Shown: positions 3,978 to 20,116, counted from the stretch's first letter. The stretch: 28,370 nucleotides of DNA from Pseudanabaenales cyanobacterium (GCA_022360135.1 JAKSDM010001206.1:1-28370); one strand, 5' to 3'. A program made the numbers and translations. Notes: generated from the letters alone by a model not told the origin.

Positions 3978-4112
3978 TTGCTTGATTACAGTCTACGTTG
4001 TTCTGCCTGGATGTATTGTGGATATTTCAAAGCACTGATTAAATTTTATGTCAACAAATTAAAACTGTATAGATATCTTATTACTGGGTAGTAGAGCGCA
4101 TCCGAAAAGCTC

Positions 4113-4670
4113 TTATTTTACCCCTAATCTTTTACGTAACCAGGTTGATCCCATGAATAGAAGCGGTGTCATCCAAAGACCATTGAGTATTAAATGAAGT
4201 GGAAGTCTGAAGTAGACGTATAGCGTTAGCAAAACACCATAGGGTGAATCCATATGGTCAATCCAATAAAAAACAGGATTGCTTTCATCCCCAGGTGAGA
4301 TCTTAAGACGGCGTTTAATAAACGAGTTAGGTAGTTCAGATAGGTTAAAAATAAAACCAATGAGTAAGCCATAGAGAATTCCATTAAAGCTACTTAGAAG
4401 AATAATGTTTTTAAGGTTAAATTTTAGACCAATTTCCAACATCTGGAATATCCAAACACTGACCAAATGAGTTAGAGGTAAACTTACCAGACCCCGCCAT
4501 TTTTTGTTGACCCCAAATAGTCCTACATGGATGGGATAGCTGAGCCTGTTAAATAGGGCTGTCTTCCACAAAAGAGCTTCAAAGATACTGGCCAGTAAAA
4601 GAGGAAGTCCTAGCCACACTAGACTTAAAAAGTCATTCTTATATAGATCAAGTGGACTCATTATACTCAT
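4113..4670 (-). CDS. CDP-archaeol synthase (CarS)-like membrane cytidylyltransferase
   Basis: Small hydrophobic protein with ELPNSFIKRRLKISPG...IDHMDS, matching the CarS/CTP_transf_1-type SFIKRRL...G...D-Q/H-x-D signature. Confidence 0.75.
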   Translation of the reverse strand: MSIMSPLDLYKNDFLSLVWLGLPLLLASIFEALLWKTALFNRLSYPIHVGLFGVNKKWRGLVSLPLTHLVSVWIFQMLEIGLKFNLKNIILLSSFNGILYGLLIGFIFNLSELPNSFIKRRLKISPGDESNPVFYWIDHMDSPYGVLLTLYVYFRLPLHLILNGLWMTPLLFMGSTWLRKRLGVK

Positions 4671-4712
4671 GATTTAGATCTTTTTATAACTGCTAAAAGT
4701 TGAAACAATGAT

Positions 4713-5750
4713 ATGCTGCTCAAATCGAAACAATCCAATACCATCGTGACTGATTCTCAAATGAGTGAGTCACGTCTTATGATTGCTCTGATTAACCCTA
4801 AAAGTGGCCAAGGTAAAGCCAGACGAGATTTGAATGTTGTTTTACCCATTTTTGAGAAGAGTAACATCCATCTGCGCGTTGCTGAAATTCAGGGTTCCCA
4901 AATTGTTTGTCAGGGGGTTCGACAATCCTTTCTGAACTTTTTCCAGTCATTAGATCTGGCTACAATTCATGGCATTATTGTGGGCGGAGGAGACGGAACA
5001 GTTCACTCAACAGTAAATGCCTTGATGAGTCGAGCAGATTGGACACAGGCGATTAAAATTCCTATTGGTTTTTTACCCAGCGGCACCGATAATGGTTTGT
5101 GTAAGACGGTTCTAGAACTTTCAGGAGAACCCTATAGTTTGAAGCATGCGGCCCTTCTCATTGCTCAAGGGCGGTTGCGATCGCTTGATATATTCAAAAT
5201 CCATCAGGAGAAACGTACGTTCTACGGCGTACATTCTCTGGCTTGGGGCTTAGTCAGCGACATTGACATCGAATCCAACCACCTCAGATTTCTGGGGCCG
5301 TTCAAAGAATGGATTTATGGATTGGCCTATGTTTTAAGACGTAGATTTTATGCGGGTACGTTACTGTTTGACCCTCAGTTTTCGCTGCAGGCTAAGTCAC
5401 CCATCTTGAGCAACAAACAAACAGATACATTTATTGGCATCTGGGCAGTTAATGTTCCCTGGGCAGGACGAGACCGCCTTTCTACTCCATTCGCCAAACT
5501 CGATGATGGTTTGATCGATTTACTCGTTCTGCGCCAAGGCATTTCAAGAAGGCATCTTTTAGAGCTTTTTATTAAAACAGAAGATGGTTCTCATATTCAT
5601 TGTCCAAAGCTTGAATACTATAAAACCCAAGCTTTAGCATTAAACCCTATCAGCATACCTGGCACTATCGCTATTGATGGTGAAGCGGTTGATTATGGCC
5701 CTATCAGCATTGAGGTTTTACAGAAACTCTGCACCATTTTTTGCCGTTAA
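4713..5750 (+). CDS. Diacylglycerol-kinase-superfamily lipid kinase with eukaryotic sphingosine-kinase-type motifs
   Basis: LINPKSGQGKA (C1), GGGDGTVHSTVNALMSRADW (C2), LPSGTDNGL (C3), SLAWGLVSDIDIESNHLRFLG (C4), DDGLIDL and IAIDGE (C5). Start may be ATG 4761. Confidence 0.85.
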   Translation: MLLKSKQSNTIVTDSQMSESRLMIALINPKSGQGKARRDLNVVLPIFEKSNIHLRVAEIQGSQIVCQGVRQSFLNFFQSLDLATIHGIIVGGGDGTVHSTVNALMSRADWTQAIKIPIGFLPSGTDNGLCKTVLELSGEPYSLKHAALLIAQGRLRSLDIFKIHQEKRTFYGVHSLAWGLVSDIDIESNHLRFLGPFKEWIYGLAYVLRRRFYAGTLLFDPQFSLQAKSPILSNKQTDTFIGIWAVNVPWAGRDRLSTPFAKLDDGLIDLLVLRQGISRRHLLELFIKTEDGSHIHCPKLEYYKTQALALNPISIPGTIAIDGEAVDYGPISIEVLQKLCTIFCR

Positions 5751-5751
5751 T

Positions 5752-6414
5752 TTACTGTTTTACAGTGTCGGTAAAAAGCTGACGCTGTTGTAAATCGATA
5801 GCCGCGATACAAACAGCAGATGCATATAGTTGAATAACATTAGTGATTTGTTTAAGTAGATAGATGGGAAAAATGCTCCATAGCAAGATCTGTCCGGTAT
5901 GGATTAAATCAAGCGGCAGATTAGGCGCGTAATAGTTTAAATACAGCAGTATATAGAACAGCTCATTGCCAAAAATTAAGGCGTCCATAAATCGTTTGTC
6001 GCCGTAATAAAGGTTGAGGAGCCGGTTTTTAGACCAGCGTTTGGTATTTTTATGGTTATGTTCCGCTTGTATAGAGGTTGCCTGTAAAAGATAGTAGTGA
6101 CTGCTGACATCTAGCGCTATGAGCAGAATGAAAATAAGTAGGTATTCTGGATAGAGTTGGGCAAGGATGAAACATAAACCTGTTGTTGCAGCTCGATCAG
6201 TCACCATATCAAGGGTAGCTCCAAACTGGGTTCTCTGATTAAGTCGTTTTGCTGCTTGACCATCGAGTTCATCGAGTAAGAAGGCCATAAGATAAAAAAT
6301 CAAACACCATAACCCATGTCCAAATGTATGAGAAATAAAGCTAATTGCATAAAGAACAACTCTTAAATAGCCAATGATATTGGGTAGCAATAGAAAAATA
6401 TTATTGGACTTCAT
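5752..6414 (-). CDS. CDP-alcohol phosphatidyltransferase, eukaryotic phosphatidylinositol synthase (PIS/CDIPT)-like
   Basis: CDP-alcohol motif DELDGQAAKRLNQRTQFGATLDMVTD, plus PIS-type segments NIFLLLPNIIGYLR, LDVSSHY, HK...N.LL..YY and GNELFYILLYL. Confidence 0.85.
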   Translation of the reverse strand: MKSNNIFLLLPNIIGYLRVVLYAISFISHTFGHGLWCLIFYLMAFLLDELDGQAAKRLNQRTQFGATLDMVTDRAATTGLCFILAQLYPEYLLIFILLIALDVSSHYYLLQATSIQAEHNHKNTKRWSKNRLLNLYYGDKRFMDALIFGNELFYILLYLNYYAPNLPLDLIHTGQILLWSIFPIYLLKQITNVIQLYASAVCIAAIDLQQRQLFTDTVKQ

Positions 6415-6526
6415 ACTCTATATTGTGGATTTGGATAAAGATTGCGACCAGCTTTGATCTTTAGTTACTTAAAGCCATTTTTTTTCTACGGTTACCTAGT
6501 TATTTCTTTCGTAAACCAGTAGGTCT

Positions 6527-7813
6527 TCATAGCCTTATTAAATCATGCGATCGCTGACAAACTGTCTCAAAGAGTTTCTCATACTCGCGTGTAATTTTGA
6601 CGGCATCAAAATCCTGGGCTCTGATTAACGCATTGCGGGCAAGTCTCGCCGCTTGATCAGGATTAGAAATCAGCTGATGAATGGCCCCTGCCAATTTCTC
6701 TGGGCTGCGGATCGGGACTAATAATCCTATTTGATCATCCTCAATGATTTCCTTAGGTCCATAGTCACAGTCTGTGGCAATGACAGGCGTCTGGCAGGCC
6801 ATTGCTTCAACCACAACATGTGGAAAGCCTTCCCATAAGGATGACAGGACAAAAGCCTGAGCTGCCGTCATATATATCCATGGATTCTCAACAAAGCCAG
6901 CTAACTTAACGTATTCCTGAAGCTTTAAAGTTTGGATTTGTACTTCTAAAGTATCTCGGTAATTGCCTTCCCCTAAAATTAGCAGCTTTAAATCCCTGAG
7001 ATGATACTGATGATGACAAAGGTATAAGGCTTGGATCAGATATTCAAATCCTTTTTGTGGGTATAACCGCCCAACAGCCACAATATAACGATCATCGGAG
7101 ACTTGCAGATTGGGTTCAGGCTTATATTTAGAGGATTGAACAGCCTGCTGAATCTGTACAAGATTGGTGGGATTATAAATATAGGTGATCTTCCCTGGAT
7201 TAATTTTATATACTTCTGAAACTTCTCTCGAAATACCCTTAGAAACTGTCAGGATTTTATCTGCTTGACTGTAACTATTCTGAATAATTCTGAATATCAA
7301 CATTTTCAGTATTCGATTCTTGGTAATACTTTTGAGATTAGTTGGAAAGCTATTTCCTTCACGCGCAATCCATTGGACTTTTCGGCTTCCTTGCTGACCT
7401 AAGGCAAAATTTGTCAGAATATTTAAACCTGTCATACTGGTCATGACGATGTCTGGCTGAATTGCCCTGACTAAAGCTTGAATTTGGTAAATTGAGGCTG
7501 GAGTTCGTAACAATCTCGGCAAGAGGCTTTTCAGACTGAAAGAATGAATTGTACTAGGCAAGGCTAAAACATATTGTAACCAGTCAGGTAATTTAGCCGT
7601 TCTGATATCTGCTACAGTCACCAAGTTGAGATATTCGCCAGTTTGGGATAAAAGACCAAGATAAGGGATAAAGCGATCGCGATCGATATACTCTAATAGG
7701 TCAACAATAGTACGCTCAGCTCCCCCACCTGATAAATCTGGCAGGATAAACAGGACTGAAATTTTCTTGGCGTCAGCTAAAGTTTGTTTCTTCACCACTT
7801 TATTGTTATCCAT
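6527..7813 (-). CDS. Glycosyltransferase family 4 (GT-B fold)
   Basis: PDLSGGGAER N-terminal motif, AVGRLYPQKG, FVLSSLWEGFPHVVVEAMAC (Ex7E). Start reassigned to ATG 7813, which overlaps the upstream stop (ATGGATAA); ORF track starts at 7870. Confidence 0.9.
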   Translation of the reverse strand: MDNNKVVKKQTLADAKKISVLFILPDLSGGGAERTIVDLLEYIDRDRFIPYLGLLSQTGEYLNLVTVADIRTAKLPDWLQYVLALPSTIHSFSLKSLLPRLLRTPASIYQIQALVRAIQPDIVMTSMTGLNILTNFALGQQGSRKVQWIAREGNSFPTNLKSITKNRILKMLIFRIIQNSYSQADKILTVSKGISREVSEVYKINPGKITYIYNPTNLVQIQQAVQSSKYKPEPNLQVSDDRYIVAVGRLYPQKGFEYLIQALYLCHHQYHLRDLKLLILGEGNYRDTLEVQIQTLKLQEYVKLAGFVENPWIYMTAAQAFVLSSLWEGFPHVVVEAMACQTPVIATDCDYGPKEIIEDDQIGLLVPIRSPEKLAGAIHQLISNPDQAARLARNALIRAQDFDAVKITREYEKLFETVCQRSHDLIRL

Positions 7814-8633
7814 ATTTCTCATAGCCAAAGAACTCCAGAGCAGGACTTGCTTCACGATTAAATTCATCAATCATTTCATCTGATAGTCTATCTATCTGCC
7901 TTTGATTCACATTTGGCTCTAGTATCTGATTTATGCTCTCCCTATCAAACCAATACTTCCGCCGCTCTTTTCCGAAAATAACTCTGTGTTCCCCTTGTTC
8001 AGTAATTACCTTTTTTGATTTAAATCGAAGCTTTTCTAGTTGGCGAGGACAAACATCTAAGAAGGTAGATAAATCCTCGATAACCTCGAAAGGGTTTTGA
8101 AGAATGTCCTCAAATTTGATCATTTTGAATCTGAGAATAACATCAGCATATCTTTTCATCTCTTCTGAAATCTGATAATACAATTGACCTACTCTGGCTG
8201 CAGTTCTCCCTCTTCTGAGATATCCATCGACTAATGCATAGCCATTTCGAGTAAGTGCTATGAAATACAAATCCGGATACACTTTGAGTAAGAGATCGGT
8301 GAGAAAAATATCTCTATTTACAGATTTGAGGCAGAGTGCTGTATTTGCAATCTGTTCGTGGGTATAGAGTTCTCCCTCAGCAATGAATCTGTCATCAGGA
8401 TGTTTAAGACTCAGTAATTTAAACCTAAACAATTGATTGTCTATGATTCGCTGGTAATCAATGATTTGTTCAGCAAGCAAGCGACAAAACCATAGCGCCC
8501 AAGACCTATAGAATAGTTCTCCAGTCTCGTATATTGGTGAGCAAATTTCAGGATGTGATTGCAATAAATTCCATGCAATATTTGTGCCTCCTCTTGCAAA
8601 ACCACTTATGACGATGACCTTGGTATTCAGCAC
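7806..8633 (-). CDS. Sulfotransferase-family protein (divergent)
   Basis: N-terminal GFARGGTNIAWNLLQSHPEI resembles the 5'-PSB loop (GxxRSGT..L..LL..HP); FIALTRN and IKFEDILQNP match later sulfotransferase segments. GTG start with GGAGGA 9 nt upstream. Confidence 0.7.
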   Translation of the reverse strand: MLNTKVIVISGFARGGTNIAWNLLQSHPEICSPIYETGELFYRSWALWFCRLLAEQIIDYQRIIDNQLFRFKLLSLKHPDDRFIAEGELYTHEQIANTALCLKSVNRDIFLTDLLLKVYPDLYFIALTRNGYALVDGYLRRGRTAARVGQLYYQISEEMKRYADVILRFKMIKFEDILQNPFEVIEDLSTFLDVCPRQLEKLRFKSKKVITEQGEHRVIFGKERRKYWFDRESINQILEPNVNQRQIDRLSDEMIDEFNREASPALEFFGYEKYG

Positions 8634-8956
8634 AGTCGTTATTCCTCCATCAACCGGCCTTGAGGTCAGCGGTGTGAGACAGCGTGAGATTGCTTTCCAA
8701 CGGAGTCAGACACTTTGCTTACACGTCTACTATTCTCAAACCCATGTTAGCCTGGTTACCGCCTAAACCATCAAGAAACTGGCAACTCAGATTTAATCCT
8801 TCGCCATGGATTAAGTGACTTAGGAGACTCAATGGTATCATTGCTGAAGCTGAAGTTAAATAGTGCAACCTGTCGGGAATACTAAGGGCCAGGTATCTGC
8901 AACATAGCTATCCCCTCTCACCTAGTTTCAACTCTTAGATAAGTGCAAGCGGTGAT

Positions 8957-10129
8957 ATGAGCGTGCGACTATTTTCCAGAATCCCCTTAGCATGGCTACA
9001 ACTAACCAGAAATAAGGTCCGTCTCTTAGTCGCTTTGATGGGGATTACCTTTGCAGTTGTGCTCATTTTCATTCAACTTGCCTTTTTGGACTCCCTATAT
9101 GAGAGTCAGACAGCCTTACACAGAAGTCTCAAGGCTGACCTGGTATTGATTAATCCTGAAATGAAGACGTTAGCAAGTAAAAGAAATTTTTCTCGTCAAC
9201 ATTTATATCGCGCTTTAAATTTTGACCAGGTAGCATCGGTTAACTATCTCTATCATGGTCAACAGACCTTTAAATACAAGGGCAGTGCTGGTGGTAAAGG
9301 AATCATTATTGTGGGAGTTAATCCAGAAGCACCACCCTTTGAAATCCCTAATTTTGATCAGCTGGCGCCTCAGCTTAGAACGACAGGTACAGTTTTATTT
9401 GATCAGAATTCTGATCTTAAGGAATATGGCAACATTGTCGAAGATTTGCAATCCGGTAAGCCGATAACTGCAGAGGTCGGAGATCGAAAAGTTTGGATTG
9501 GTGGAGCCGTTGACTTTGCAGGCGCTTCATTTGCAGACGATGGAAACTTGATTGCCAGCAGCGCAACTTTTTTGCAAATTATACCTCATCGTAATGCAGA
9601 TGATATAACCATTGGTTTGATCACGCTAAAACCGGATGTTGACAAACAAAAATTTCTGAATGGAATGGCGGCTCAGTTACCGGAAAATGTTCAAGTAATG
9701 ACGCTTCAAGACTTTATCGATCTTGAAAAACATTACTGGTCTACGAGTGCGCCAATTGGATTCGTTTTTGGTATGGGTGTCCTCGTCGGTTTTCTGGTGG
9801 GGGTAATCATTGTTTATCAAATTCTTTACAACGAAGTTTCTGACCATTTGCCAGATTATGCAGTCCTGAAAGCAAGAGGCTATAAGCATCGTTACTTTTT
9901 AGGGATTCTTTTCCAGGAAGCTTTACTTCTAGCGATCCTGGGTTATATTCCTGGATTCGCCATCTCTTTAGGACTTTATGATGTGACTAAAGACGCCACC
10001 GCTCTCCCCATTCATATGACGTTTCAAAGAGCATCACTGGTGCTTTTACTCACCATTATGATGTGCTTCATGTCCGGCGCTATTAGTATGCGTAAATTGC
10101 GGGAGGCAGATCCAGCAGAACTTTTCTAA
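8957..10129 (+). CDS. devC: DevC-family ABC exporter permease (FtsX-like)
   Basis: RIPLAWLQL...RLLVAL.GI.FAVVLIF.QL, IGFVFGMG, YQILYNEVSDHLPDYAVLKARGY, LREADPAELF. Confidence 0.9.
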   Translation: MSVRLFSRIPLAWLQLTRNKVRLLVALMGITFAVVLIFIQLAFLDSLYESQTALHRSLKADLVLINPEMKTLASKRNFSRQHLYRALNFDQVASVNYLYHGQQTFKYKGSAGGKGIIIVGVNPEAPPFEIPNFDQLAPQLRTTGTVLFDQNSDLKEYGNIVEDLQSGKPITAEVGDRKVWIGGAVDFAGASFADDGNLIASSATFLQIIPHRNADDITIGLITLKPDVDKQKFLNGMAAQLPENVQVMTLQDFIDLEKHYWSTSAPIGFVFGMGVLVGFLVGVIIVYQILYNEVSDHLPDYAVLKARGYKHRYFLGILFQEALLLAILGYIPGFAISLGLYDVTKDATALPIHMTFQRASLVLLLTIMMCFMSGAISMRKLREADPAELF

Positions 10130-10140
10130 ATTTATTTTTT

Positions 10141-10273
10141 GTCACTTGTCACTTGTCACTTGTCACTTGTCACTTGTCACTTGTCACTTGTCACTTGTCA
10201 CTTGTCACTTGTCACTTGTTACTTGTTACTTGTTATCTGACCAATGACCAATGACCAATGACTCATGACTTAT
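10141..10273 (+). repeat. STRR-type heptamer array, bipartite
   Basis: 19 in-phase heptamers: 11x GTCACTT, 2x GTTACTT, GTTATCT, 3x GACCAAT, GACTCAT, GACTTAT. GACCAAT is a rotation of the reverse complement of STRR2 TTGGTCA. Confidence 0.95.
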
Positions 10274-10334
10274 GTCCCTGCTAGTTCGATAACGATCTAA
10301 GTTAATACCTTCTTTGAGCACACTTCATAATACT

Positions 10335-11876
10335 ATGACGGCTCAATCTATTGTTTCAGTTCAGAATCTAAATCACTTTTTTGGAGAAAATACACTCCGA
10401 AAACAAGTTTTATTCGATGTCAATCTTGAGATTCGCCCTAAAGAATTTGTCATCCTGACTGGGCCTTCCGGTTCGGGTAAAAGTACCTTGTTGAGCCTGA
10501 TTGGTTGCTTGCGCTCAGTTCAAACCGGAAGTCTTAAGGTCTTGGGTCAAGAGCTTAATGGGGCTAATAATAGCCAGTTAATCCAGGTCCGTCGTCACTT
10601 TGGCTTTATTACCCAATCCAGTAACCTACTTCATTTTCTGACGGCCCAGCAAAATGTACAGATGTCGCTAGAATTACATCCGGAACTTTCGGGGCAAGAT
10701 AGGCGTACAAAGGCAAAAGCCATTTTGGAAGCAGTTGGATTGGGCGATCGCATTGCCTACTATCCTGATAGCCTATCAGGTGGACAGCGCCAAAGGGTGG
10801 CGATCGCCAGCGCCCTAGTCACCAATCCCAAATTGATGCTGGCCGATGAACCCACCGCTGCTTTAGATCGAAAGTCAGGCCGGAACGTGGTCGCCTTGAT
10901 GCATCGATTGGCAAAGGAGCAGGGAAGCGCTGTCTTGATGGTTACCCACGATAATCGCATCCTTGATCTCGCCGATCGGATCATCAACGTTGAAGACGGC
11001 AAGCTGGGATTAGCCGTTAGTCAAGAACTCTCTATTGCATTACCAGGCTTTAACGCCGCCCTGCTTGAGAAAAGCGATACAAAACCGACCGTCCTCACCT
11101 ATGAAGCTGGCGAGATTATCGTGCGACAAGGTGAAACCGCTACTAAGTTCTATGTCATTCTCGAAGGTGAGGTGGAGATTCTTCAAGAAACCCCTGATCA
11201 ACCCGCCAAACTTCTAAGACGGATGGGGCGGGGAGAATATTTTGGTGAAATTGGTTTGCTGCAAGGAGGTGAACGCACAGCCACAGTTCGCGTCGCCAAA
11301 GATTCAGAAGTCAAAGTTATGGTGATTGAGGAAACGCTTTTTCGACTTCTGATCGCCGATTCTGACCTCACCAATACCGATGTGGCTCGCCGCCTGCATC
11401 AGCGCATCATGACCAGTCACCTGGCGATCGCCTTGCCGAACCTGAGCACAGCTCGCATCACCGAGATTTTAGCTGCGGTGGAGGTGGTTCGATACGGGCC
11501 AAATTCCAATATTGTGCAACAAGGTGAGTCCGCCGATCGGTTTTACTTGATTTCTAAGGGCCAGGTCGCCGTAATTAACCATCAGGACGATGGCCAGGAA
11601 GCCACTCTCCGCACAATGCAAGCGGGTGAATACTTTGGTGAGACCGAGCTAATGAACAGACAAGACTATGGCTTTACGATTCGAGTGCTTCCTGAAGCCA
11701 GTGTTGAAGTCATGGTGTTAGACCGGACAACCTTCTGTAGCCTGATCGTTGAGTCCAATGCCAGCCAAGACAAAGTCGCCACAGTCTTGCGTAACCGCCT
11801 CATCGGCAATACCGAATATCCCTCTGAATCTATCTCCCTCAATCAAAACGCCCTTAAATCACGTTCCTCTCCCTAA
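10335..11876 (+). CDS. devA: DevA-family ABC ATPase fused to two C-terminal cNMP-binding domains
   Basis: Walker A GPSGSGKS, LSGGQRQRV, Walker B LMLADEPT, MVTHD; then GEYFGEIGLLQGGERTATVR and GEYFGETELMNRQDYGFTIR. ATG 10335 preferred over TTG 10314. Confidence 0.9.
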   Translation: MTAQSIVSVQNLNHFFGENTLRKQVLFDVNLEIRPKEFVILTGPSGSGKSTLLSLIGCLRSVQTGSLKVLGQELNGANNSQLIQVRRHFGFITQSSNLLHFLTAQQNVQMSLELHPELSGQDRRTKAKAILEAVGLGDRIAYYPDSLSGGQRQRVAIASALVTNPKLMLADEPTAALDRKSGRNVVALMHRLAKEQGSAVLMVTHDNRILDLADRIINVEDGKLGLAVSQELSIALPGFNAALLEKSDTKPTVLTYEAGEIIVRQGETATKFYVILEGEVEILQETPDQPAKLLRRMGRGEYFGEIGLLQGGERTATVRVAKDSEVKVMVIEETLFRLLIADSDLTNTDVARRLHQRIMTSHLAIALPNLSTARITEILAAVEVVRYGPNSNIVQQGESADRFYLISKGQVAVINHQDDGQEATLRTMQAGEYFGETELMNRQDYGFTIRVLPEASVEVMVLDRTTFCSLIVESNASQDKVATVLRNRLIGNTEYPSESISLNQNALKSRSSP

Positions 11877-11989
11877 ATTTGGGATGTTGGCTGCGAGATT
11901 GGGAATTCTGTAATTTAACATTACCTATTCAACTCAACTACGTTTCCCCTATTGAGCATCGCCGCCTTACAGCCTCGGAGTGAGGATGT

Positions 11990-13225
11990 ATGACGAATAC
12001 CTTGGACATTCAGTGTGTCATCGCTAAGACAATTGTTGATATGGAAATCAGACAATCTCGATTCAAATCCAAAACATGGATGACTATCCTGCTCCTGGCG
12101 GCTGGTGTCCTGACTGCGAATACGCTTTTGCCCACGGGTTTCTTCAAGGTTCGGGAAACTCAACGGAATGTTGTTTCGGAGGTTTCTGCTAGCGAGCCTA
12201 CCCTGACCACGGTAACGGCGCTAGGACGATTAGAACCTCAAGGAGAAATCACTCGTCTATCTGCATCTAGCTCTAATCAGCGTTTGGCTCAAGTGTTGGT
12301 GGGTGAAGGGGATATCGTTCAAGCTGGGCAAGCGATTGCTGTTCTCGACAATATCGATATTCGGAAAGCGGCTCTAGAGGAGGCGCAAGCAAAAGTAAAA
12401 GCTGCTCACGCCCATCTGACTCAGGTCAGCGCCGGGGCCAAGATGGGCGCCATTAATGCTCAACAAAGCAAAATAGTCATGTTAGAGGCTCAATTGGTTG
12501 GGGATATCGAGGCTCAGAAAGCGACTATTGCTCGTCTAGAGGCAGAAGTGCGCAATGCTGAAGTAGACTATCAACGCCATCAGAATCTTTATGATTCAGG
12601 GGCGATTTCAGCCTCTCTGTTTGACACCAAGCGCACCCAAATGGAAACCTTGCGGGAACAGCTTCGAGAAGCAACCGTGACCTTAGAACGAACTGTTAAC
12701 ACGGGTCAAGCCCAAGTTCAAGCTGAAAAAGAAACTCTACAGAGCATTGCTGAAGTTCGCTCAGTTGACATAGCCGAAGCCCAAGCCCAAGTGGATGAAG
12801 CATTGGCGTTAGTGAGCAAAGCAGAGGCAGACTTGGAACTTGCCTATGTGCGATCGCCTGTGGATGGACAAATTTTGAACCTTCACGCCAAAGCGGGTGA
12901 AATTGTGGGCGGCCAGGGCTTTGCTGACATCGGTCAAACTCAACAGATGTATGTCGTGGCTGAAATCTACGAAACCGATATTCGCCATGTGCAGATTGGC
13001 CAAACAGCTGCCATTATTAGTGAATACGGTGGGTTTACGGGCGAACTCAGGGGGGTTGTGAACCAAATTGGCCTGCAAATTGACAAACCTGGCATTTCTA
13101 ATGATGATCCAGCTGCTAAGGCGGATGTCAGGGTGGTGGAAGTCAAAATTCGCCTCAATTCAGAAGACAGTGAGCGAGTCAGACATCTCAATAACCTACA
13201 AGTTCGGGCATCCATTGAAATCTGA
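11990..13225 (+). CDS. devB: DevB-family HlyD-type membrane fusion protein
   Basis: VTALGRLEPQGE, long coiled coil, VRSPVDGQIL, QMYVVAEIYETDI, RVVEVKIRL...NNLQV. GAGGA upstream of ATG 11990 (alternative start 12041). Confidence 0.9.
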   Translation: MTNTLDIQCVIAKTIVDMEIRQSRFKSKTWMTILLLAAGVLTANTLLPTGFFKVRETQRNVVSEVSASEPTLTTVTALGRLEPQGEITRLSASSSNQRLAQVLVGEGDIVQAGQAIAVLDNIDIRKAALEEAQAKVKAAHAHLTQVSAGAKMGAINAQQSKIVMLEAQLVGDIEAQKATIARLEAEVRNAEVDYQRHQNLYDSGAISASLFDTKRTQMETLREQLREATVTLERTVNTGQAQVQAEKETLQSIAEVRSVDIAEAQAQVDEALALVSKAEADLELAYVRSPVDGQILNLHAKAGEIVGGQGFADIGQTQQMYVVAEIYETDIRHVQIGQTAAIISEYGGFTGELRGVVNQIGLQIDKPGISNDDPAAKADVRVVEVKIRLNSEDSERVRHLNNLQVRASIEI

Positions 13226-13521: not shown

Positions 13522-14298
13522 GTGATATCGATGCCAACCAGAAAAGTAACGGCCGCCGTCAAAACATTCAGTATGTTGCTCTCATCGGCGACTTTATTGG
13601 TGACTAGTTTGATCTCCCTGCAACCCAGTTATAGTATTGAGTTTCCCTCTACTGGCAACCGAGGCGGTCCCGCTAGAACAACCGGCGGCGGTGTCCGAGG
13701 CGGCGACTGCAGGGATGGCGCGTCCCAAGCGCATCAAGTATTTTCTCTAACTCCGTTAATGCCGTTGAACATAAGCGGCGAATATCAAAATACGTTCGTT
13801 GATGATTCTGTTGTGATGCTGTTCTATGTGCCAGATGGCGTCCGCAATAAGTATGCCGAAGTCTATGTCGAAGATCCCAACACAGGTGAAGTGGTCTATG
13901 AAAGCATTTTCTTCCTGGCCACGCCTCCGAGAATTATGCAGGTGAGTTTCCCAGCTTTTTCGGAGGAAACAGGCGAGACTCTAGAGATGGATAAAGATTA
14001 TCTCTGGGAATTCGCTATTATTTGTGACTTTCGCGATCGTGGCCTTGATATTTATACTTCAGGTTACACTCGACGGGTTGCCCCCCCATCTCAACTGCCC
14101 CCAACATTTGACCAACTGCAGAACTGGACAGTCGCCAGCGCTGATAGCTATGCCCAGGCTCTGATCTGGCAAGAATCTCTGCGGATTCTTGATCATGTGA
14201 AATGTGACTCTCAAGCCGAATGGACAGAGTTTTTAAACTCTGCAGGGCTGGATCAGGCAATCACGCAAGTCAGTCTTGAGCAGTGCCGTGCTGAGTAA
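13522..14298 (+). CDS. DUF928-domain protein (predicted secreted)
   Basis: Signal-peptide-like N-terminus, GGPARTTGGGVRGG motif, L.PLMP, Y.WEF.IICD..DR, YAQALIWQESL; sits directly before a CHASE2 gene, the usual context for DUF928. Confidence 0.75.
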   Translation: MISMPTRKVTAAVKTFSMLLSSATLLVTSLISLQPSYSIEFPSTGNRGGPARTTGGGVRGGDCRDGASQAHQVFSLTPLMPLNISGEYQNTFVDDSVVMLFYVPDGVRNKYAEVYVEDPNTGEVVYESIFFLATPPRIMQVSFPAFSEETGETLEMDKDYLWEFAIICDFRDRGLDIYTSGYTRRVAPPSQLPPTFDQLQNWTVASADSYAQALIWQESLRILDHVKCDSQAEWTEFLNSAGLDQAITQVSLEQCRAE

Positions 14299-14324
14299 AC
14301 CATAAGGGCATTGGACGAATTGCT

Positions 14325-16571
14325 ATGTGGACAACGCTGCGGCAAATTCTCTGGGAATGGCGGGGAGTTGTGATCACAACCCCCAGTGTCGCCAGTCTGG
14401 TGATTTTGCTCCGGTTGGCGGGCTTGTTACAAGCCTGGGAATGGTCCGCCTTTGACCAATATATGCGCCTTCGTCCGCAAGCGCCAAGCGATGATCGAGT
14501 TGTTATTGTTGGTCTGGATGAAAATGATGTTAGATCCATTGGACAAGCCATTATTCCAGACGGTGTTTACGCCGAACTCATCAAGAAACTTCGAGCCCAA
14601 GAGCCACGTGCGATCGGGTTGGATATTTATCGTGACTTACCGGTTGAACCAGGGCACGATGAACTGATTGAGGTCTTCAAAACCACCCCCAATCTGGTGG
14701 GAATTCAAAAAGTGATTGGCGAGGCTGGACGGGACACGATCGCCCCGCCTCCGGTCTTGAAGGAACAGAATCAAGTTGGTGCAAACGATCTGGTAACTGA
14801 CGCTGATAACACAGTGAGGCGTGGATTAGTCTCCGTTAATGATGCAAACGGAGAGACGATCTATAGTTTAAGCTTGTATCTTGCACTGCTCTATCTGGCA
14901 GCTGACGGTATTGCTCCGATCATGCTAGAGGGTAGTGACGATAGTTGGTGGTTAGGTCAATCGCTGTTTAAGCCATTCGAGGCAAACGATGGGGGGTATA
15001 TTCGAGCGGATGCAGGCGGCTATCAGCAACTAATTAATTATCGAGGGCCGACCCAGACCTTTGAAACAGTGTCCCTCATGGATGTCCTGAACAATAAGAC
15101 GCCGCTAGATTGGGCGCGGGATCGGATCGTTTTGATTGGGGCTGTTGGCGAAAGTTTCCAAGATGTTGTCTACACCCCCTATAGCAGTGGTTTATTATCC
15201 ATACCAGAACCCATGTCGGGGGTGGAAGTCCATGCCAATTTCACCAGTCAAATTATTAGCGCTGCGATTGAAGGGCGTCCGCTGATTCAAACCTGGCCTG
15301 AACCTGTAGAGTGGGTCTGGATCCTTCTCTGGTCGGGCGCTGGCGCCACCTTGGTTTGGCAGACTCGGAAACCCGGAAACCTTCACAGAGGTTGGTTGCA
15401 AAGAAGCACTGTAGCAGCGGCAGCGATCGTCATCCTATTTGGTGGCGCCTATGGGGCGTTTGTAACGGGTTGGTGGATTCCTCTAGCACCCGCTTTAGTT
15501 GCCTCAGTTGGAGCCGCTACAGTTGTCACCGGGTATCTTGCCTACACCGCTGGGAATATTCGAAAAACCTTCGGTCGTTACCTGAGCGATGAGATTGTCA
15601 CTAATCTTCTGGAGAACCCAGACGCCCAGAAGTTAGGAGGAGAGAGACGTCGACTCACCATCCTCACCTCTGATTTGAGAGGGTTCACTGCTACCTCAGA
15701 GCGATTATCTCCCGAAGAGGTGCTTAAAGTTCTTAACTTCTACCTGGGGCGCATGACAGACGTAATTACCCGCTACCAGGGAACCATTGATGAGTTTATA
15801 GGCGACGGCATCCTAGTCTTGTTTGGGGCGCCGATCTGCCGAGAGGATGACGCCCAGCGTGCTGTGGCCTGTGCTGTGGCCATGCAGTTGGTAATGATTG
15901 AGGTCAATCAGACCATCCAAATATGGGGTTTGCCACCGTTGGAGATGGGCATTGGCATCCACACGGGCGAAGCGGTCGTTGGCAATATTGGTTCTGAGAG
16001 ACGCACCAAGTACGGTGTAGTTGGAAGTGCAGTAAACCTAACCTACCGGATTGAGTCTTACACCATCGGGGGGGAAATTTTGATTTCCGAGGAAACCCGC
16101 CAAGCGGCGGGATCGATTGTGCAGATTGAGAGACAAAAGGAGGTCCAACCTAAGGGTGTTCGGAGCCCCATCACTATTCATGAGGTCGGTGGAATCGGCG
16201 GCTCCTACAATCTCACCCTAATCCAGGAAGTAGAAACTTTCCTACCCTTGGCTGAAGCAATTTTAGTGCGGTATACTACGCTGCTTGGTAAGCATGTGGG
16301 GAAGACCTACTTCCAAGGATGGTTGATCCAACTTTCGGAGAAGGGTGCGTTAGTGCGCCCTGACTCCGTGGCAGATGCGTTTATGCTTCCTCTAACCAAC
16401 ATCAAACTAAATTTGTTGGGCAAGGGTGAATCGACCGTGATCAGTGAAGATATTTACGCCAAGGTCATAGAAAAACCAACAGAACCAGATAAGTTTTATA
16501 TTCGCTTTACCGCTAAGCCGCCTACCGTTAACACCCAGCTCAACAGTCTTTATCAAGCGCTCAAAGCGTAA
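14325..16571 (+). CDS. CHASE2-domain class III nucleotide cyclase, Cya2-like (guanylyl-type specificity residues)
   Basis: CHASE2 (IGLDIYRD, VLIG, GVEVHA), three TM helices, cyclase SDLRGFT, IDEFIGDG, GIHTG, KYGVVGSAVNLTYRIES; extra C-terminal domain. Confidence 0.9.
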   Translation: MWTTLRQILWEWRGVVITTPSVASLVILLRLAGLLQAWEWSAFDQYMRLRPQAPSDDRVVIVGLDENDVRSIGQAIIPDGVYAELIKKLRAQEPRAIGLDIYRDLPVEPGHDELIEVFKTTPNLVGIQKVIGEAGRDTIAPPPVLKEQNQVGANDLVTDADNTVRRGLVSVNDANGETIYSLSLYLALLYLAADGIAPIMLEGSDDSWWLGQSLFKPFEANDGGYIRADAGGYQQLINYRGPTQTFETVSLMDVLNNKTPLDWARDRIVLIGAVGESFQDVVYTPYSSGLLSIPEPMSGVEVHANFTSQIISAAIEGRPLIQTWPEPVEWVWILLWSGAGATLVWQTRKPGNLHRGWLQRSTVAAAAIVILFGGAYGAFVTGWWIPLAPALVASVGAATVVTGYLAYTAGNIRKTFGRYLSDEIVTNLLENPDAQKLGGERRRLTILTSDLRGFTATSERLSPEEVLKVLNFYLGRMTDVITRYQGTIDEFIGDGILVLFGAPICREDDAQRAVACAVAMQLVMIEVNQTIQIWGLPPLEMGIGIHTGEAVVGNIGSERRTKYGVVGSAVNLTYRIESYTIGGEILISEETRQAAGSIVQIERQKEVQPKGVRSPITIHEVGGIGGSYNLTLIQEVETFLPLAEAILVRYTTLLGKHVGKTYFQGWLIQLSEKGALVRPDSVADAFMLPLTNIKLNLLGKGESTVISEDIYAKVIEKPTEPDKFYIRFTAKPPTVNTQLNSLYQALKA

Positions 16572-16611
16572 CAGCGACAAAAAGTTAGATGACTGCTCTA
16601 GCAGGAAAAAC

Positions 16612-17376
16612 ATGAGGTTACTCTTTTTGGGTTCTGGTTCTGCTTTCACAGTGGGGGCCGACAATTTTCACTCCAACCTACTTCTGATCAGTGAGACGGG
16701 ACGGAAACTACTATTGGACTGCGGTTCCGATATCCGCTTCTCGCTTCATGAGGCTGATTTATGCCATCGTGACATTACAGATATCTATATTAGCCATCTC
16801 CATGCTGATCACGTTGGCGGTTTGGAGTATATGGGATTTAGGGCTCTATTTGATCCGGATTGTCAAAAATCCAATCTCTTTTTGAGTCAAGATCTGGCTG
16901 GAGAGCTTTGGGAAAAAACACTCTCCGGCGGTATGCGTTGTCTTGAGGGAGATATTGCAACCCTTGATACTTTCTTCACCGTTTATCCGATTAAGCCCAA
17001 GGGGCAGTTCCTATGGGAGGGGATTCAGTTCAACTTGGCGCCAGTTATCCATATCAACACCGGATATTTTGTCATGCCCAGTTATGGGCTATTTTTTGAG
17101 ATCGCAGGCGTCAAAATTTTTCTCTCAACCGATACCCAACTTTGCCTGGACGTAGTGGGATCCTATTACGAGCAAGCCGATGTCATCTTTCATGACTGTG
17201 AGACGTCCCAATTCCCCAGTCCTGTCCATGCTCACTATCACCAACTGGTTACCTTACCCGCGGCGATCAAGCAGAAAATGTGGCTCTACGGTTACCAGCC
17301 AGGTTCTCTACCTGACGCCAAACGGGACGGCTTCTGTGGATTTGTCAAACGCGGCCAAACTTTTGAGTTTCTTTAA
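16612..17376 (+). CDS. Metallo-beta-lactamase-fold hydrolase (possible cyclic-nucleotide phosphodiesterase)
   Basis: LLDCG, HLHADH (HxHxDH), STDT, IFHDCET, VHAHY. Overlaps the convergent ziaA stop by 4 nt (TTAA, 17373-17376). Confidence 0.8.
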   Translation: MRLLFLGSGSAFTVGADNFHSNLLLISETGRKLLLDCGSDIRFSLHEADLCHRDITDIYISHLHADHVGGLEYMGFRALFDPDCQKSNLFLSQDLAGELWEKTLSGGMRCLEGDIATLDTFFTVYPIKPKGQFLWEGIQFNLAPVIHINTGYFVMPSYGLFFEIAGVKIFLSTDTQLCLDVVGSYYEQADVIFHDCETSQFPSPVHAHYHQLVTLPAAIKQKMWLYGYQPGSLPDAKRDGFCGFVKRGQTFEFL

Positions 17377-19391
17377 CTCTTTAACACTCGACCAGCATTG
17401 AAAATTGCCAGGAGGGCAACGCCAACATCAGCAAACACAGCTCCCCACAGTGTTGCTAGCCCCACTGCTCCAAGCAAGATGACACCGCCTTTAATGGTTA
17501 GAGCTAGGATGATGTTTTGCCAAACAATGCGGCGTGTTTTGTGAGCGATCTGAATTGCTTCAGCAACCTTGGAAGGGGCATCGGTCATAATCACCACATC
17601 CGCCGTTTCAATCGCCGCATCGGAGCCTAAACCGCCCATTGCCAGGCCCACATCCGCCCTGGCGATCACGGGCGCATCGTTGATGCCATCACCCACAAAG
17701 GCGACTTTGCTATTGGAGTGATTGGCTGTCTGTAGTAACTCTTCTAGCACAGCAACCTTATCTTCTGGCAGTAGTTCCGCCCGATAGCGATCCAGTCCTA
17801 GTTTGCCAGCGATTCTATCTGCAACGGGCTGACTATCACCTGTCAGCATCACGGCTTCAATACCTTGGGTGTGTAACGCTTGAATCGCCTTGCTGGCATC
17901 CTCTTTTAGCTCATCTGCAATGATGATGCGCCCGGTATACTCCCCGTCTACCGCAAGATGAGCTACGGTGCCATCAACGGCGCAGCCATCATGGGCGATC
18001 GCTGCTTGATTCAGCAGCCGTTCATTTCCAGCAATCACAATCTGGCCATTGATCCTGGCGCGAACGCCATGACCGGAAATTTCTTCATAGTCTTTTACTG
18101 CAGACTCATCGACAGGCTGGCCATAAGCATCTCGAATAGACTGAGCCACCGGATGATTGGAATGGACTTCAACTTTGGCGGCTAGTTCCAGCAATTGCGC
18201 CTGACTTAACCCATTGTGGGACACCACCTCAGTCACTTTGAACTTGCCTTTTGTCAGTGTTCCAGTCTTATCAAAAACAACAGTTTTGAGTTGGGTTAGG
18301 ACATCCAGAAAAGTTGATCCTTTGACCAGAATACCGCGCTTAGCGGCTCCGCCCACACCGCCGAAATAGCCCAGGGGAATACTAATCACCAATCCACAAG
18401 GACAGGAAATGACTAGCAAAATCAGGGCTCGATACACCCATTCCTCATGGGAGGCGCCCGAAATCAGCAGCGGCGGCAGCATGGCAATAGCCAAGGAGAG
18501 CACCACAACAACAGGTGTGTAGTAGCGGGCGAAGCGAGTGATGAACTTTTCGGTTGCGGCCTTCTTGCTGCTGGCGGTTTCAACCAAATCTAGGATCTTG
18601 ACGATAGATGACTCTTCAAATCGCTTAGTCACGCGCAGCGTTAGCACGCCAGACTGATTGATCATGCCCGCCAGAATGGTTTCACCCACCTTTACGGTGC
18701 GAGGTGTGGATTCACCTGTTAAGGGTGAGGTGTCTACCTGGGACTTGCCATCAAGAATTTCTCCATCAAGGGGAATCTTTTCACCCGGTTTGACCCGAAT
18801 GATGTCTCCAACCGCAATTACCTCAGGGGAAACGGGTTTGACTTCACCGTTGATTTTCAAGTTAGCGATATCAGGTCGAACCGCCAGCAGCGACTTAATC
18901 GAATGGCGAGATTGCCCTACTGCAAACCCTTGAAACATCTCACCAACCTGGAAGAATAGCATCACTGCAACTGCTTCCGGCAATTCATGGATAGCGATCG
19001 CCCCCAATGTGGCGATCACCATCAGAAAATTCTCATCAAAAATACGCCCCCGTAAGATGTTCCGCCCTGCCGCAGTCAGTACACTCCAACCACTGATCAG
19101 ATAAGCCGTAAGCAAGATCGCATATTCTGCAATCGAAAAGGGCGTATGGTGTAGAAAATCCTGGAAGAACAGGCCGATGAGAAAGAGAACTAAGGCAATG
19201 GCGAATGGGGTTAGTTCTGCTCGCAAGTTGAAATCACCATCGTCATAACCATGGCTATGGTCATGACCACAACCATAGTCATGACTGCGATCGTGGCTAT
19301 GATTGTGGCTGTGGTCATGGCTATGATCATGGCTGTGGTCATGACTATGGCAGGCTGAACAGGAGTGGGCGGAAGATCGCGGTGCTGTCAT
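17373..19391 (-). CDS. ziaA: P1B-type heavy-metal (Zn/Cd) exporting ATPase with His-rich N-terminus
   Basis: TGES, SCPC, DKTGT, HP, GDGINDAP; (HSHD)n N-terminus. ATG 19391 preferred (ORF track TTG 19406). Confidence 0.9.
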   Translation of the reverse strand: MTAPRSSAHSCSACHSHDHSHDHSHDHSHNHSHDRSHDYGCGHDHSHGYDDGDFNLRAELTPFAIALVLFLIGLFFQDFLHHTPFSIAEYAILLTAYLISGWSVLTAAGRNILRGRIFDENFLMVIATLGAIAIHELPEAVAVMLFFQVGEMFQGFAVGQSRHSIKSLLAVRPDIANLKINGEVKPVSPEVIAVGDIIRVKPGEKIPLDGEILDGKSQVDTSPLTGESTPRTVKVGETILAGMINQSGVLTLRVTKRFEESSIVKILDLVETASSKKAATEKFITRFARYYTPVVVVLSLAIAMLPPLLISGASHEEWVYRALILLVISCPCGLVISIPLGYFGGVGGAAKRGILVKGSTFLDVLTQLKTVVFDKTGTLTKGKFKVTEVVSHNGLSQAQLLELAAKVEVHSNHPVAQSIRDAYGQPVDESAVKDYEEISGHGVRARINGQIVIAGNERLLNQAAIAHDGCAVDGTVAHLAVDGEYTGRIIIADELKEDASKAIQALHTQGIEAVMLTGDSQPVADRIAGKLGLDRYRAELLPEDKVAVLEELLQTANHSNSKVAFVGDGINDAPVIARADVGLAMGGLGSDAAIETADVVIMTDAPSKVAEAIQIAHKTRRIVWQNIILALTIKGGVILLGAVGLATLWGAVFADVGVALLAIFNAGRVLKS
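19251..19349 (-). repeat. 12-bp-period coding repeat encoding His-rich (HSHD)n tract
   Basis: Protein HSHDHSHDHSHDHSHNHSHDRSHDYGCGHDHSH. Confidence 0.9.
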
Positions 19392-19416
19392 GACAGTAAA
19401 GTCCAAAATACGACTG

Positions 19417-19442
19417 AATATCTGAGAGCCTATTCAGGCATG
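19417..19442. promoter_or_regulatory. SmtB/ZiaR-type 12-2-12 operator upstream of ziaA
   Basis: AATATCTGAGAGCCTATTCAGGCATG has the TGA-N8-TCA core and resembles the zia operator as I recall it (AATATCTGAG...TTCAGG). Candidate -10 TATCAT on minus strand at 19440-19445. Confidence 0.75.
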
Positions 19443-19618
19443 ATATAGCAGAAACCCTACATGTCCTTACGGGATCTTCCACAGCTTTCAGCAATTCTCA
19501 TTTTAAGATTTCATGAGATTAAAACCCTGGCTCCAAGAGGGGTTGGCTATTCTTGAAATAAAGTTGGATTACTGAAACGCCGTAAAATTGTTTCAAACTT
19601 ATTTCGGCTGCAAAGTTC

Positions 19619-20020
19619 TTATGAAGCCGATTCGTCTAAGTGCTCCGCCACTTCTCGGTAAAGATTGATGACATGGTGATCAGCCAGTCGATAGTAAACA
19701 TTTCGGCCTACTTTGCGGTAGCTGACTAAGCGCAGCGTGCGGAGGAGTCGGAGTTGGTGGGATACGGCCGATTCACCCATCTTCACCAGCGCCGCCAAAT
19801 CACAAACGCACAATTCCTGCTTCGCTAGCGCTGAAATCAATTTTAGGCGGTTAGGATCGGCCAATACCCCAAAAAATTCAGCCATCCGTTGCGCTTTTTC
19901 TGTGGGTAAAATCTCTGGCTGAACCTGGCGAACATTGTCCATATGAACCAGAGACGATTCACAGGCCGGCGTCCCTGATAAATGCATTAGAGGTTGTTCC
20001 AATTTGTTAACATGACTCAT
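19619..20020 (-). CDS. ziaR: ArsR/SmtB-family Zn-sensing repressor
   Basis: ELCVCDLAA...SAVSHQLR, alpha5 site DHH...EHLDE, N-terminal Cys (ACESSLVH). Start uncertain (20020 or 19987; ORF track 20077). Confidence 0.9.
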   Translation of the reverse strand: MSHVNKLEQPLMHLSGTPACESSLVHMDNVRQVQPEILPTEKAQRMAEFFGVLADPNRLKLISALAKQELCVCDLAALVKMGESAVSHQLRLLRTLRLVSYRKVGRNVYYRLADHHVINLYREVAEHLDESAS

Positions 20021-20116
20021 GACTGCTAACCAACGACGCCCTTTTGGCATTGAGTAATCCAGCGACTTCAAAAGCAAGTTTGATGCTGTAAGGGCGTAGT
20101 TGAGTCCAAATACATT

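Follow-up and report, generated by a model that had tools for sequence, protein, structure and literature searches.

A candidate pathway for an exported inositol sphingolipid next to a Dev-type pump in a coral-reef cyanobacterium

What do a sulfotransferase, a GT4 glycosyltransferase and a phosphatidylinositol synthase (PIS)-like enzyme make together, and is their product the cargo of the Dev-type exporter encoded divergently from them? This question is raised by a stretch of DNA from a Pseudanabaenales cyanobacterium (GCA_022360135.1 JAKSDM010001206.1:1-28370), which is the whole of contig C1642 (28,370 bp; hereafter the window) in a cyanobacterial assembly of 7.7 Mb and 1,838 contigs from a coral-reef source. 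An earlier note on this DNA had read the three genes as a tailoring operon for a glycosylated, possibly sulfated inositol lipid. On the basis of family assignments and gene context we slightly favour a wider reading, in which a larger accessory lipid pathway would have its head-group end in sulfotransferase-GT4-PIS and its dedicated exporter in the divergent devC-devA-devB unit. The product of the gene set is probably an inositol-phosphate lipid with a sphingosine-like base, carrying a sugar and perhaps sulfate and exported by a pump that has cyclic-nucleotide (cNMP)-binding domains. The proposed pathway occurs in a minority of cyanobacteria. The genes in question are arranged as follows.

5752-6414, minus strand: PIS-like CDP-alcohol phosphatidyltransferase, 220 aa, PF01066
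6527-7822 (alternative start ATG 7813), minus strand: GT4 (GT-B) glycosyltransferase, Glycos_transf_1
7806-8633, minus strand: 3'-phosphoadenosine 5'-phosphosulfate (PAPS)-type sulfotransferase, 275 aa, Sulfotransfer_3
8634-8956, no strand: divergent intergenic region, 323 nt
8957-10129, plus strand: devC, FtsX/MacB-type permease, TIGR01185
10335 (or TTG 10314)-11876, plus strand: devA, ATPase with two cNMP-binding domains, TIGR02982
11990-13225, plus strand: devB, membrane-fusion adaptor, TIGR02971
4713-5750, plus strand: sphingosine-kinase (SphK)-like lipid kinase, in the same module as the PIS-like gene, PDB match SphK1
4113-4670, minus strand: putative CarS-fold CTP-dependent cytidylyltransferase, same module, PF01864
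2175-3977, plus strand: fatty acyl-AMP ligase (FAAL) by family match, the second FAAL of the system

Gene geometry was checked by listing the open reading frames and by direct reading of the sequence. The GT4 gene has two in-frame ATG codons, at 7813 and 7822. With the first start it overlaps the sulfotransferase gene by 8 nt (ATGGATAA); with the second, which gene callers prefer on identical metagenome contigs, the overlap is 17 nt and GT4 has 431 aa, so that the two genes overlap whichever ATG is used. On the same strand, 112 nt separate the GT4 stop from the start of the PIS-like gene. The 8-nt overlap, this spacing and the 323-nt divergent gap given in the earlier note are all present, and its family calls (PIS-like, GT4, sulfotransferase and the Dev subunits) hold by Pfam and NCBIfam. 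A scan of 5600-9100 found no terminator-like hairpin between the three minus-strand genes, and promoter-like matches in the same interval were not above chance. Operon status of sulfotransferase-GT4-PIS is thus compatible with the sequence. No CRP-like site was detected in the divergent region at 8634-8956, window-wide matches being below chance, and small repeats seen in that region were dismissed as they look like chance. From the CarS-like gene to devC (4001-10000) the G+C content is 0.38-0.42 against 0.47-0.50 on either flank, which is consistent with acquisition of the head-group module as one block.

The head-group module and its lipid anchor

By sequence the PIS-like protein (PF01066/CDP-OH_P_transf, 58 bits in Pfam) is a eukaryote-type enzyme. 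It aligns over its full length with the PIS cluster of the green alga Bathycoccus prasinos (35% identity, E 7e-40), its nearest atlas clusters are eukaryotic CDIPT (CDP-diacylglycerol-inositol phosphatidyltransferase, score 0.97), and the motifs that it has in common with eukaryotic PIS extend along the whole protein, well past the CDP-alcohol signature. Within that signature (D-x2-D-G-x2-A-R-x8-G-x3-D-x3-D) the protein reads DGxxAK...G...D...D, with Lys in place of the Arg and with all Asp and Gly positions present and invariant across the family alignment. Every NCBIfam model for phosphatidylinositol phosphate (PIP) synthase, archaetidylinositol phosphate (AIP) synthase and PgsA scored far under its cut-off (AIP synthase 36.6 bits against 180, PIPSynth 32.2 against 170, BT1523 type 19.6 against 350), and the match to the PIP synthase of Mycobacterium tuberculosis (PgsA1, 6H53) reached only E 0.04. 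With these scores a bacterial or archaeal PIP or AIP synthase was rejected, as was PgsA, since a distinct PgsA-like gene is found on contig C272 of the assembly. About 90 protein clusters are 52-76% identical to the PIS-like protein, and the named ones are all cyanobacterial. A search for related loci from this protein alone returned one locus, a stand-alone PIS in the metagenome-assembled genome P01_G01_bin.67.

The PIS-like gene is accompanied by the genes of a lipid kinase and of a CarS-like enzyme. The kinase belongs to the DAGK_cat family, which includes diacylglycerol (DAG) kinases; its best PDB match is human SphK1 (3.4e-30), the bacterial DgkB reaching 2.9e-8. The CarS-like protein is a membrane protein of 185 aa that matches PF01864 with 33.9 bits (cut-off 22), as do 60 of 70 relatives. 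Sequence searches of solved structures gave no match for the CarS-like profile or for the sulfotransferase, and fold searches were consequently used for both. The AlphaFold2 (AF2) model of the CarS-like protein has a pLDDT of 96 and its sole real Foldseek match is the archaeal CDP-archaeol synthase 5GUF (TM 0.59/0.67). It is not an equivalog of archaeal CarS (PRK04032, 28 bits against a cut-off of 148) and only four representative clusters attain E<=1e-30. A canonical CdsA gene and the PgsA-like gene are present elsewhere in the genome, and therefore the CarS-like/PIS-like pair is additional.

A second contig of the assembly, C1805 (locus L004, 9965-17175), encodes in one direction an inositol-phosphate synthase (MIPS), a FAAL, a fusion of acyl carrier protein (ACP) and oxoamine synthase (AOS), an SDR and a Wzx-like flippase. 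The best solved match of the AOS is bacterial serine palmitoyltransferase (Spt; 1.5e-69), human SPTLC2 being next. The free-standing FAAL of related clusters is 44-49% identical to the FAAL of the window. AOS-domain orthologues were also seen in open frames of 2,400-2,750 aa (genomes G158, G017, G014 and G202), and in some cyanobacteria the AOS condensation step may thus be part of a PKS-like megasynthase.

The genes that are split between the two contigs are contiguous in other cyanobacteria. In Jaaginema sp. PMC 1079.18, genes for PIS, kinase, CarS-like, GT4, Stealth, LicD and SDR proteins are followed by a FAAL-ACP-AOS triple fusion, a FAAL, MIPS and an MsbA-like ABC protein, and then by DevC, a DevA that carries the two cNMP domains, DevB and a phosphoenolpyruvate (PEP)-mutase/NTP-transferase. 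Oscillatoria sp. PMC 1051.18 and the sample genome G298 have the same core, and the PIS-like and CarS-like genes are contiguous with FAAL-ACP-AOS-SDR in three assemblies. Order and relative orientation of the PIS/kinase/CarS-like trio are kept in the window, Jaaginema and Oscillatoria, while in G298 the kinase gene adjoins the CarS-like gene and PIS lies at the contig edge. Pleurocapsa-type genomes (G402, G101 and G288) have PIS, kinase, CarS-like and MIPS genes but dispersed: PIS stands alone, the CarS-like gene lies beside MIPS, FAAL and a GT4, and that of the SphK-like kinase is at another site. Among sampled cyanobacterial genomes the components were found at the following frequencies.

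AOS orthologues: 24/391 genomes
MIPS over cut-off: 7/401 genomes
Close CarS-like homologues: 5/401 genomes
PIS-like: 4/401 genomes
DevA with cNMP domains: 3/391 genomes

In these samples all genomes with a PIS-like, CarS-like or DevA-cNMP protein were AOS-positive and all four PIS-like genomes fell within the seven that have MIPS; the carriers are akin, representing perhaps three or four independent lineages, and this nested distribution is no statistical test. The inositol head group proposed in the earlier note fits these data, as the PIS-like protein is eukaryote-type and its four genomes are all MIPS-positive. The tailoring role given there to PIS was not borne out: the gene belongs to the conserved trio, and its product would be the head-group step of a kinase/CarS-like/PIS module rather than a tailoring enzyme.

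The anchor that the earlier note implied, DAG, also needs changing. In a version with this anchor, CDP-DAG is the substrate from which PIS forms phosphatidylinositol, the kinase and the CarS-like enzyme provide a salvage route from DAG over phosphatidic acid to CDP-DAG, GT4 and the sulfotransferase lead to a sulfoglycolipid resembling phosphatidylinositol mannosides (PIM), and the AOS genes make a separate product. Characterised eukaryotic PIS enzymes do use CDP-DAG, the kinase family has DAG kinases among its members, and in Pleurocapsa-type genomes the PIS-like gene stands apart from those of the kinase and the CarS-like enzyme. However, the match of the kinase to SphK1 exceeds that to DgkB by 22 orders of magnitude, the genome already carries CdsA, and among the sampled genomes the PIS-like and CarS-like genes are confined to AOS-positive ones, with the contiguity in three assemblies described above. 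We consider the DAG version quite unlikely. The lipid anchor is probably a sphingoid derived from the oxoamine synthase rather than phosphatidyl-DAG.

Sugar and sulfate tailoring

The GT4 protein matches Glycos_transf_1 with 145 bits (Pfam) and reaches no NCBIfam equivalog cut-off. Its best PDB matches are TagF-like, TarM and Alr3699 (about 1e-17 to 1e-14); about 18 other GT4 structures match better than PimA (6e-9), which also lies outside the best 25 of 38 NCBIfam matches. A specific likeness to PimA, the example cited in the earlier note, is not seen; what the two have in common is the general GT4 fold.

The sulfotransferase exceeds the Sulfotransfer_3 cut-off (38.8 bits against 27). Its AF2 model (pLDDT 95) matches TPST1/2, CurM-ST, OLS-ST and HS 3-OST in Foldseek (prob 1.0, TM about 0.58), and the phosphosulfate loop GFARGGTN (G-x2-R-G-G-T-N) is conserved in the family. 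The modelled fold is confidently that of a PAPS sulfotransferase with its 5'-phosphosulfate loop, and the genome has an APS kinase.

The GT4s of related clusters are only 24-28% identical to that of the window and not orthologous, and clusters of the Jaaginema type have Stealth, LicD and phosphonate genes in place of the sulfotransferase; tailoring is therefore modular and lineage-specific. In Jaaginema (L017, 4315-5893 and 18740-19999) the Stealth, LicD and PEP-mutase/NTP-transferase fusion genes that stand where the window has the sulfotransferase suggest that the same lipid is decorated there with phospho-sugar or phosphonate. A further variant was seen in genome G364 (L028, 4272-4802, 6999-8987 and 14154-15722), where FAAL, AOS, SDR and CarS-like genes occur with those of a fatty-acid hydroxylase, an acyl-CoA-dehydrogenase-like protein and an MBOAT acyltransferase; the PIS query from the window found no PIS-like gene in this genome.

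Do GT4 and the sulfotransferase act on this lipid at all? They could instead serve an unrelated glycan, such as a sulfated extracellular polysaccharide, lipopolysaccharide or a capsule-like polymer, and be merely neighbours of the PIS/kinase/CarS module. Relatives of the sulfotransferase at 64-72% identity, the closest ones with a readable context, are surrounded by non-lipid genes, mostly in glycan clusters: those at 64-69% lie in two glycan-type clusters that also encode further sulfotransferases, methyltransferases, NeuB, an epimerase and an ABC exporter, the 72% relative adjoins a hexapeptide acyltransferase, and those relatives that have a name belong to Balneolaceae, Halomonas and Rhodohalobacter. 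The lack of orthology between GT4s of different clusters agrees with this view, as do the best NCBIfam and PDB matches of GT4, which are polymer or undecaprenol-linked glycan enzymes. Against it, some GT4 directly adjoins the CarS-like gene in each clustered variant seen (Jaaginema, Oscillatoria and G101), the GT4 and sulfotransferase genes overlap and have strand and low G+C content in common with PIS, across a 112-nt gap free of terminator-like hairpins, and the window has no polymerase, Wzy, priming transferase or chain-length gene. An unrelated glycan is in our view unlikely. Sulfation of the lipid is the weakest step of the proposed pathway, and we suggest it because of the GT4 overlap, the strand and low G+C content in common with PIS, and the lack of polymer-assembly genes in the window. 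The claim of lipid sulfation thus stands on adjacency in this lineage, while the non-lipid surroundings of the relatives speak against it.

The stretch is present in coral-reef metagenomes, with more than half of its sampled words in three runs. In four coral metatranscriptome libraries from a single study, contigs match most genes of the cluster at 95-100% identity; one of them spans the sulfotransferase/GT4 junction (7570-7856) and another covers 8635-8903. No metatranscriptome contig bridges the gap between GT4 and PIS, uncovered stretches being uninformative. We take this coverage as a weak hint of expression, because RNA libraries may contain DNA and the contigs carry no strand information.

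The Dev exporter and its cyclic-nucleotide domains

All three Dev subunits exceed their curated NCBIfam cut-offs (devC TIGR01185, 415 bits against 290; DevA TIGR02982, 347 against 296; DevB TIGR02971, 337 against 129). The C-terminus of DevA contains cNMP_binding twice (134 bits, Pfam); the first domain keeps the FGE...RTA cassette and that of the second is degenerate. About 30 DevA relatives (protein clusters) are fused to tandem cNMP domains, nearly all of them cyanobacterial. Some have 772-807 aa (P0114, P0116 and P0117; for example in Moorea sp. SIO2B7), presumably with extra cNMP domains. Metagenomic proteins (P0147-P0158 and P0157-P0177) have similar tandem domains joined to cytochrome P450s and to site-2-protease-type peptidases.

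Synteny of the exporter was followed in four further cyanobacterial assemblies with located DevA-cNMP loci. The devC-devA(2x cNMP)-devB unit recurs within or next to lipid clusters in Jaaginema, Pantanalinema, Nostoc minutum and G116, and DevC orthologues that adjoin AOS lipid clusters are 65-73% identical. Pantanalinema GBBB05 has Wzx on the minus strand, then DevC-DevA(cNMP)-DevB, FAAL-ACP-AOS, SDR and FAAL. In Nostoc minutum NIES-26, FAAL, fatty-acid hydroxylase and desaturase genes precede Wzx (minus strand) and DevC-DevA(cNMP), DevB being on the opposite strand. The AOS and DevA-cNMP genes of G116 lie about 9 kb apart on one contig, and DevA-cNMP is also present in G298. Adjacency to the lipid core in four further assemblies supports the exporter link proposed in the earlier note, and with it a functional link between the Dev exporter and the neighbouring lipid genes.

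It could still be that the pump carries other cargo, either the free amino-lipid core or a different metabolite, and that its position opposite the sulfotransferase is incidental. In Nostoc minutum and Pantanalinema the pump occurs with AOS and FAAL, and the 21 kb read around it contain no PIS, CarS-like or MIPS gene; the cargo there is therefore not an inositol lipid made by these enzymes. Conversely, G101, G288 and G364 have lipid genes and DevA-cNMP was not found in them. On the other side, the pump is kept with the full PIS-containing cluster in Jaaginema and is present in G298. An incidental pump with other cargo seems to us very unlikely. As the Dev-cNMP pump is tied to the AOS core with or without the inositol module, its cargo class would be an AOS-derived lipid. 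MacB-type pumps eject their substrates from the periplasmic side (reviewed in PMC5985334), and the conserved Wzx- and MsbA-like genes therefore fit as the preceding flippase. Two hypothetical proteins (388 and 433 aa) that are conserved in the Nostoc and Pantanalinema clusters have no homologue in the window's genome.

Further genes of the window flank the cluster.

13522-17376, plus strand: DUF928 protein, CHASE2-domain nucleotide cyclase and metallo-beta-lactamase (MBL)-fold Apyc1-like hydrolase, by family matches
381-2093: B12-binding radical SAM enzyme with DUF4070, just upstream of FAAL
17373-20077, minus strand: P-type ATPase and ArsR/SmtB-family regulator

The first group follows devB on the same strand, and its MBL-fold hydrolase matches the Apyc1 cyclic-nucleotide phosphodiesterase family with 80 bits. 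These genes possibly form a unit that makes and breaks cNMP for DevA; in Jaaginema they are not conserved beside devB. The B12-radical-SAM protein has weak best matches to the PhpK, ladderane-lipid and HpnR methylase families, and no homologue of it was seen in the portions of related clusters that were read. The pair at 17373-20077 resembles a zia-like metal efflux system and seems unrelated to the lipid cluster. At its left end the window overlaps no other contig, and a 55.8-kb metagenome contig stops at the same base.

Proposed pathway and relation to known systems

From the family and fold assignments, gene overlaps, synteny and co-occurrence observed, we infer every chemical step of the following scheme. 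FAAL would load a fatty acid on ACP, the Spt-like AOS would condense it with an amino acid and the SDR would reduce the ketone to a sphingoid-type amino alcohol, these first enzymes being encoded on C1805. The SphK-like kinase would then phosphorylate this base, or its N-acyl form, at the primary alcohol, and the CarS-fold enzyme would use CTP to give a CDP-lipid. From this donor the PIS-like enzyme would transfer the lipid-phosphate to myo-inositol supplied through MIPS. GT4 would add a sugar and, in this lineage, the sulfotransferase encoded by the overlapping gene would sulfate the product with PAPS. A Wzx- or MsbA-like flippase would bring the lipid to the periplasmic leaflet, from where DevCAB, a pump of the MacB type that presumably works with a TolC-like duct, would carry it to the cell surface. 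Binding of cNMP at the tandem C-terminal domains of DevA would gate the ATPase.

Several observations weigh against this scheme. The signature Arg is Lys in the PIS-like protein, and K, Q, I or R in its relatives. We had considered that loss of this Arg marks a cluster-associated PIS with a different donor, and dropped the idea because Arg-containing Pleurocapsa-type genomes also have the CarS-like and kinase genes. The AOS falls under every curated NCBIfam cut-off (bioF 361 against 426; Spt models 310 against 640, 297 against 500 and 226 against 670). No N-acyltransferase was identified. The AOS and MIPS genes lie on a contig separate from the window and the two are not joined, C1805 overlapping only the 3.8-kb contig C1338, which dead-ends. 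To these are added the non-orthologous GT4s and the non-lipid contexts of sulfotransferase relatives described above. The complete proposal, a cyanobacterial glycosylated and here sulfated inositol phospho-sphingolipid made via an SphK-type kinase, a CDP-sphingoid and a eukaryote-type PIS, exported by a cNMP-gated DevCAB and following a route undescribed in any organism, is put forward as tentative and, taken whole, as somewhat less likely than not.

Two types of inositol-lipid cluster have been described in Bacteroides, the BT_1522-1526 type and a B. vulgatus-type alternative (Heaver et al. 2022, PMC9246714). As in the window's genome, MIPS there occurs with a CDP-alcohol phosphatidyltransferase in a bacterium that has Spt-type long-chain-base synthesis, and the end product is inositol phospho-dihydroceramide. 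The BT type employs a PIP synthase, a PIP phosphatase and a phosphatidylinositol-to-ceramide transferase, and the alternative a soluble NTP-transferase, proposed to make CDP-inositol, with a HAD enzyme. In contrast, the system of the window has an SphK-like kinase, a CarS-fold membrane cytidylyltransferase, a eukaryote-type PIS and a dedicated tripartite exporter, and no PIP synthase, HAD enzyme or AUR1-like enzyme. DevBCA-HgdD exports the heterocyst glycolipid in Anabaena PCC 7120 (PMC6161253, PMC8064123). The window's subunits score above the DevC, DevA and DevB family cut-offs and the pump genes likewise adjoin lipid-synthesis genes, but the gene order is C-A-B instead of the B-C-A of Anabaena, DevA has two extra cNMP domains, and the neighbours are FAAL, AOS and PIS instead of the hgl polyketide synthase genes.

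Eukaryotic CDIPT/PIS1 resembles the PIS-like protein in length, in full-length alignment and in motifs downstream of the CDP-alcohol signature; the window's protein differs in its bacterial host, in the Lys at the signature Arg and in its coupling to CarS-like and SphK-like genes. This coupling suggests a CDP-lipid donor other than CDP-DAG. The mycobacterial PIM pathway (PgsA1, PimA) similarly extends an inositol phospholipid by a GT4, but the PIS-like protein is no PIP synthase (32 bits against 170) and the window's GT4 is no closer to PimA than many GT4s are. The anionic sphingolipid pathway of Caulobacter comprises Spt, ACP, an acyl-ACP synthetase and the ceramide kinase CpgB, and is alike in that an ACP-dependent condensation of the Spt type precedes a lipid kinase, with which the building of the head group begins; to our knowledge it has no CDP activation, inositol or Dev-type pump. 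None of the Bacteroidetes, Anabaena, eukaryotic PIS and PIM systems compared combines an SphK-like kinase, a CarS-fold enzyme, a eukaryote-type PIS and a Dev pump with cNMP domains. In the literature we found no description of this cluster, of FAAL-AOS in cyanobacteria or of a cNMP-fused DevA.

Clusters for exported bacterial glyco-inositol lipids are already known, and the CDP-sphingoid step, if real, would be substantially more novel. A 2022 study found no sphingolipid genes in Nostoc punctiforme and noted that only two cyanobacterial sphingolipids had ever been reported, no cyanobacterial sphingolipid gene being known at that time (PMC8895605). The locus bears on sphingolipid and inositol-lipid biosynthesis genes, so far unidentified in cyanobacteria. 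If the proposal is true, it would add a third bacterial inositol-lipid route to the two of Bacteroidetes (PMC9246714), one whose enzymes have their nearest characterised relatives in eukaryotes (PIS, SphK) and archaea (CarS). An intermediate in which a sphingoid is activated by CDP would be new to lipid biochemistry, and direct control of a tripartite efflux pump by a cyclic nucleotide would be a novel way of regulating lipid export to the envelope. Because tailoring varies, with sulfate here and phospho-sugar or phosphonate genes elsewhere, the product would seem to be one of several related surface lipids, of possible importance in coral-reef and mat habitats.

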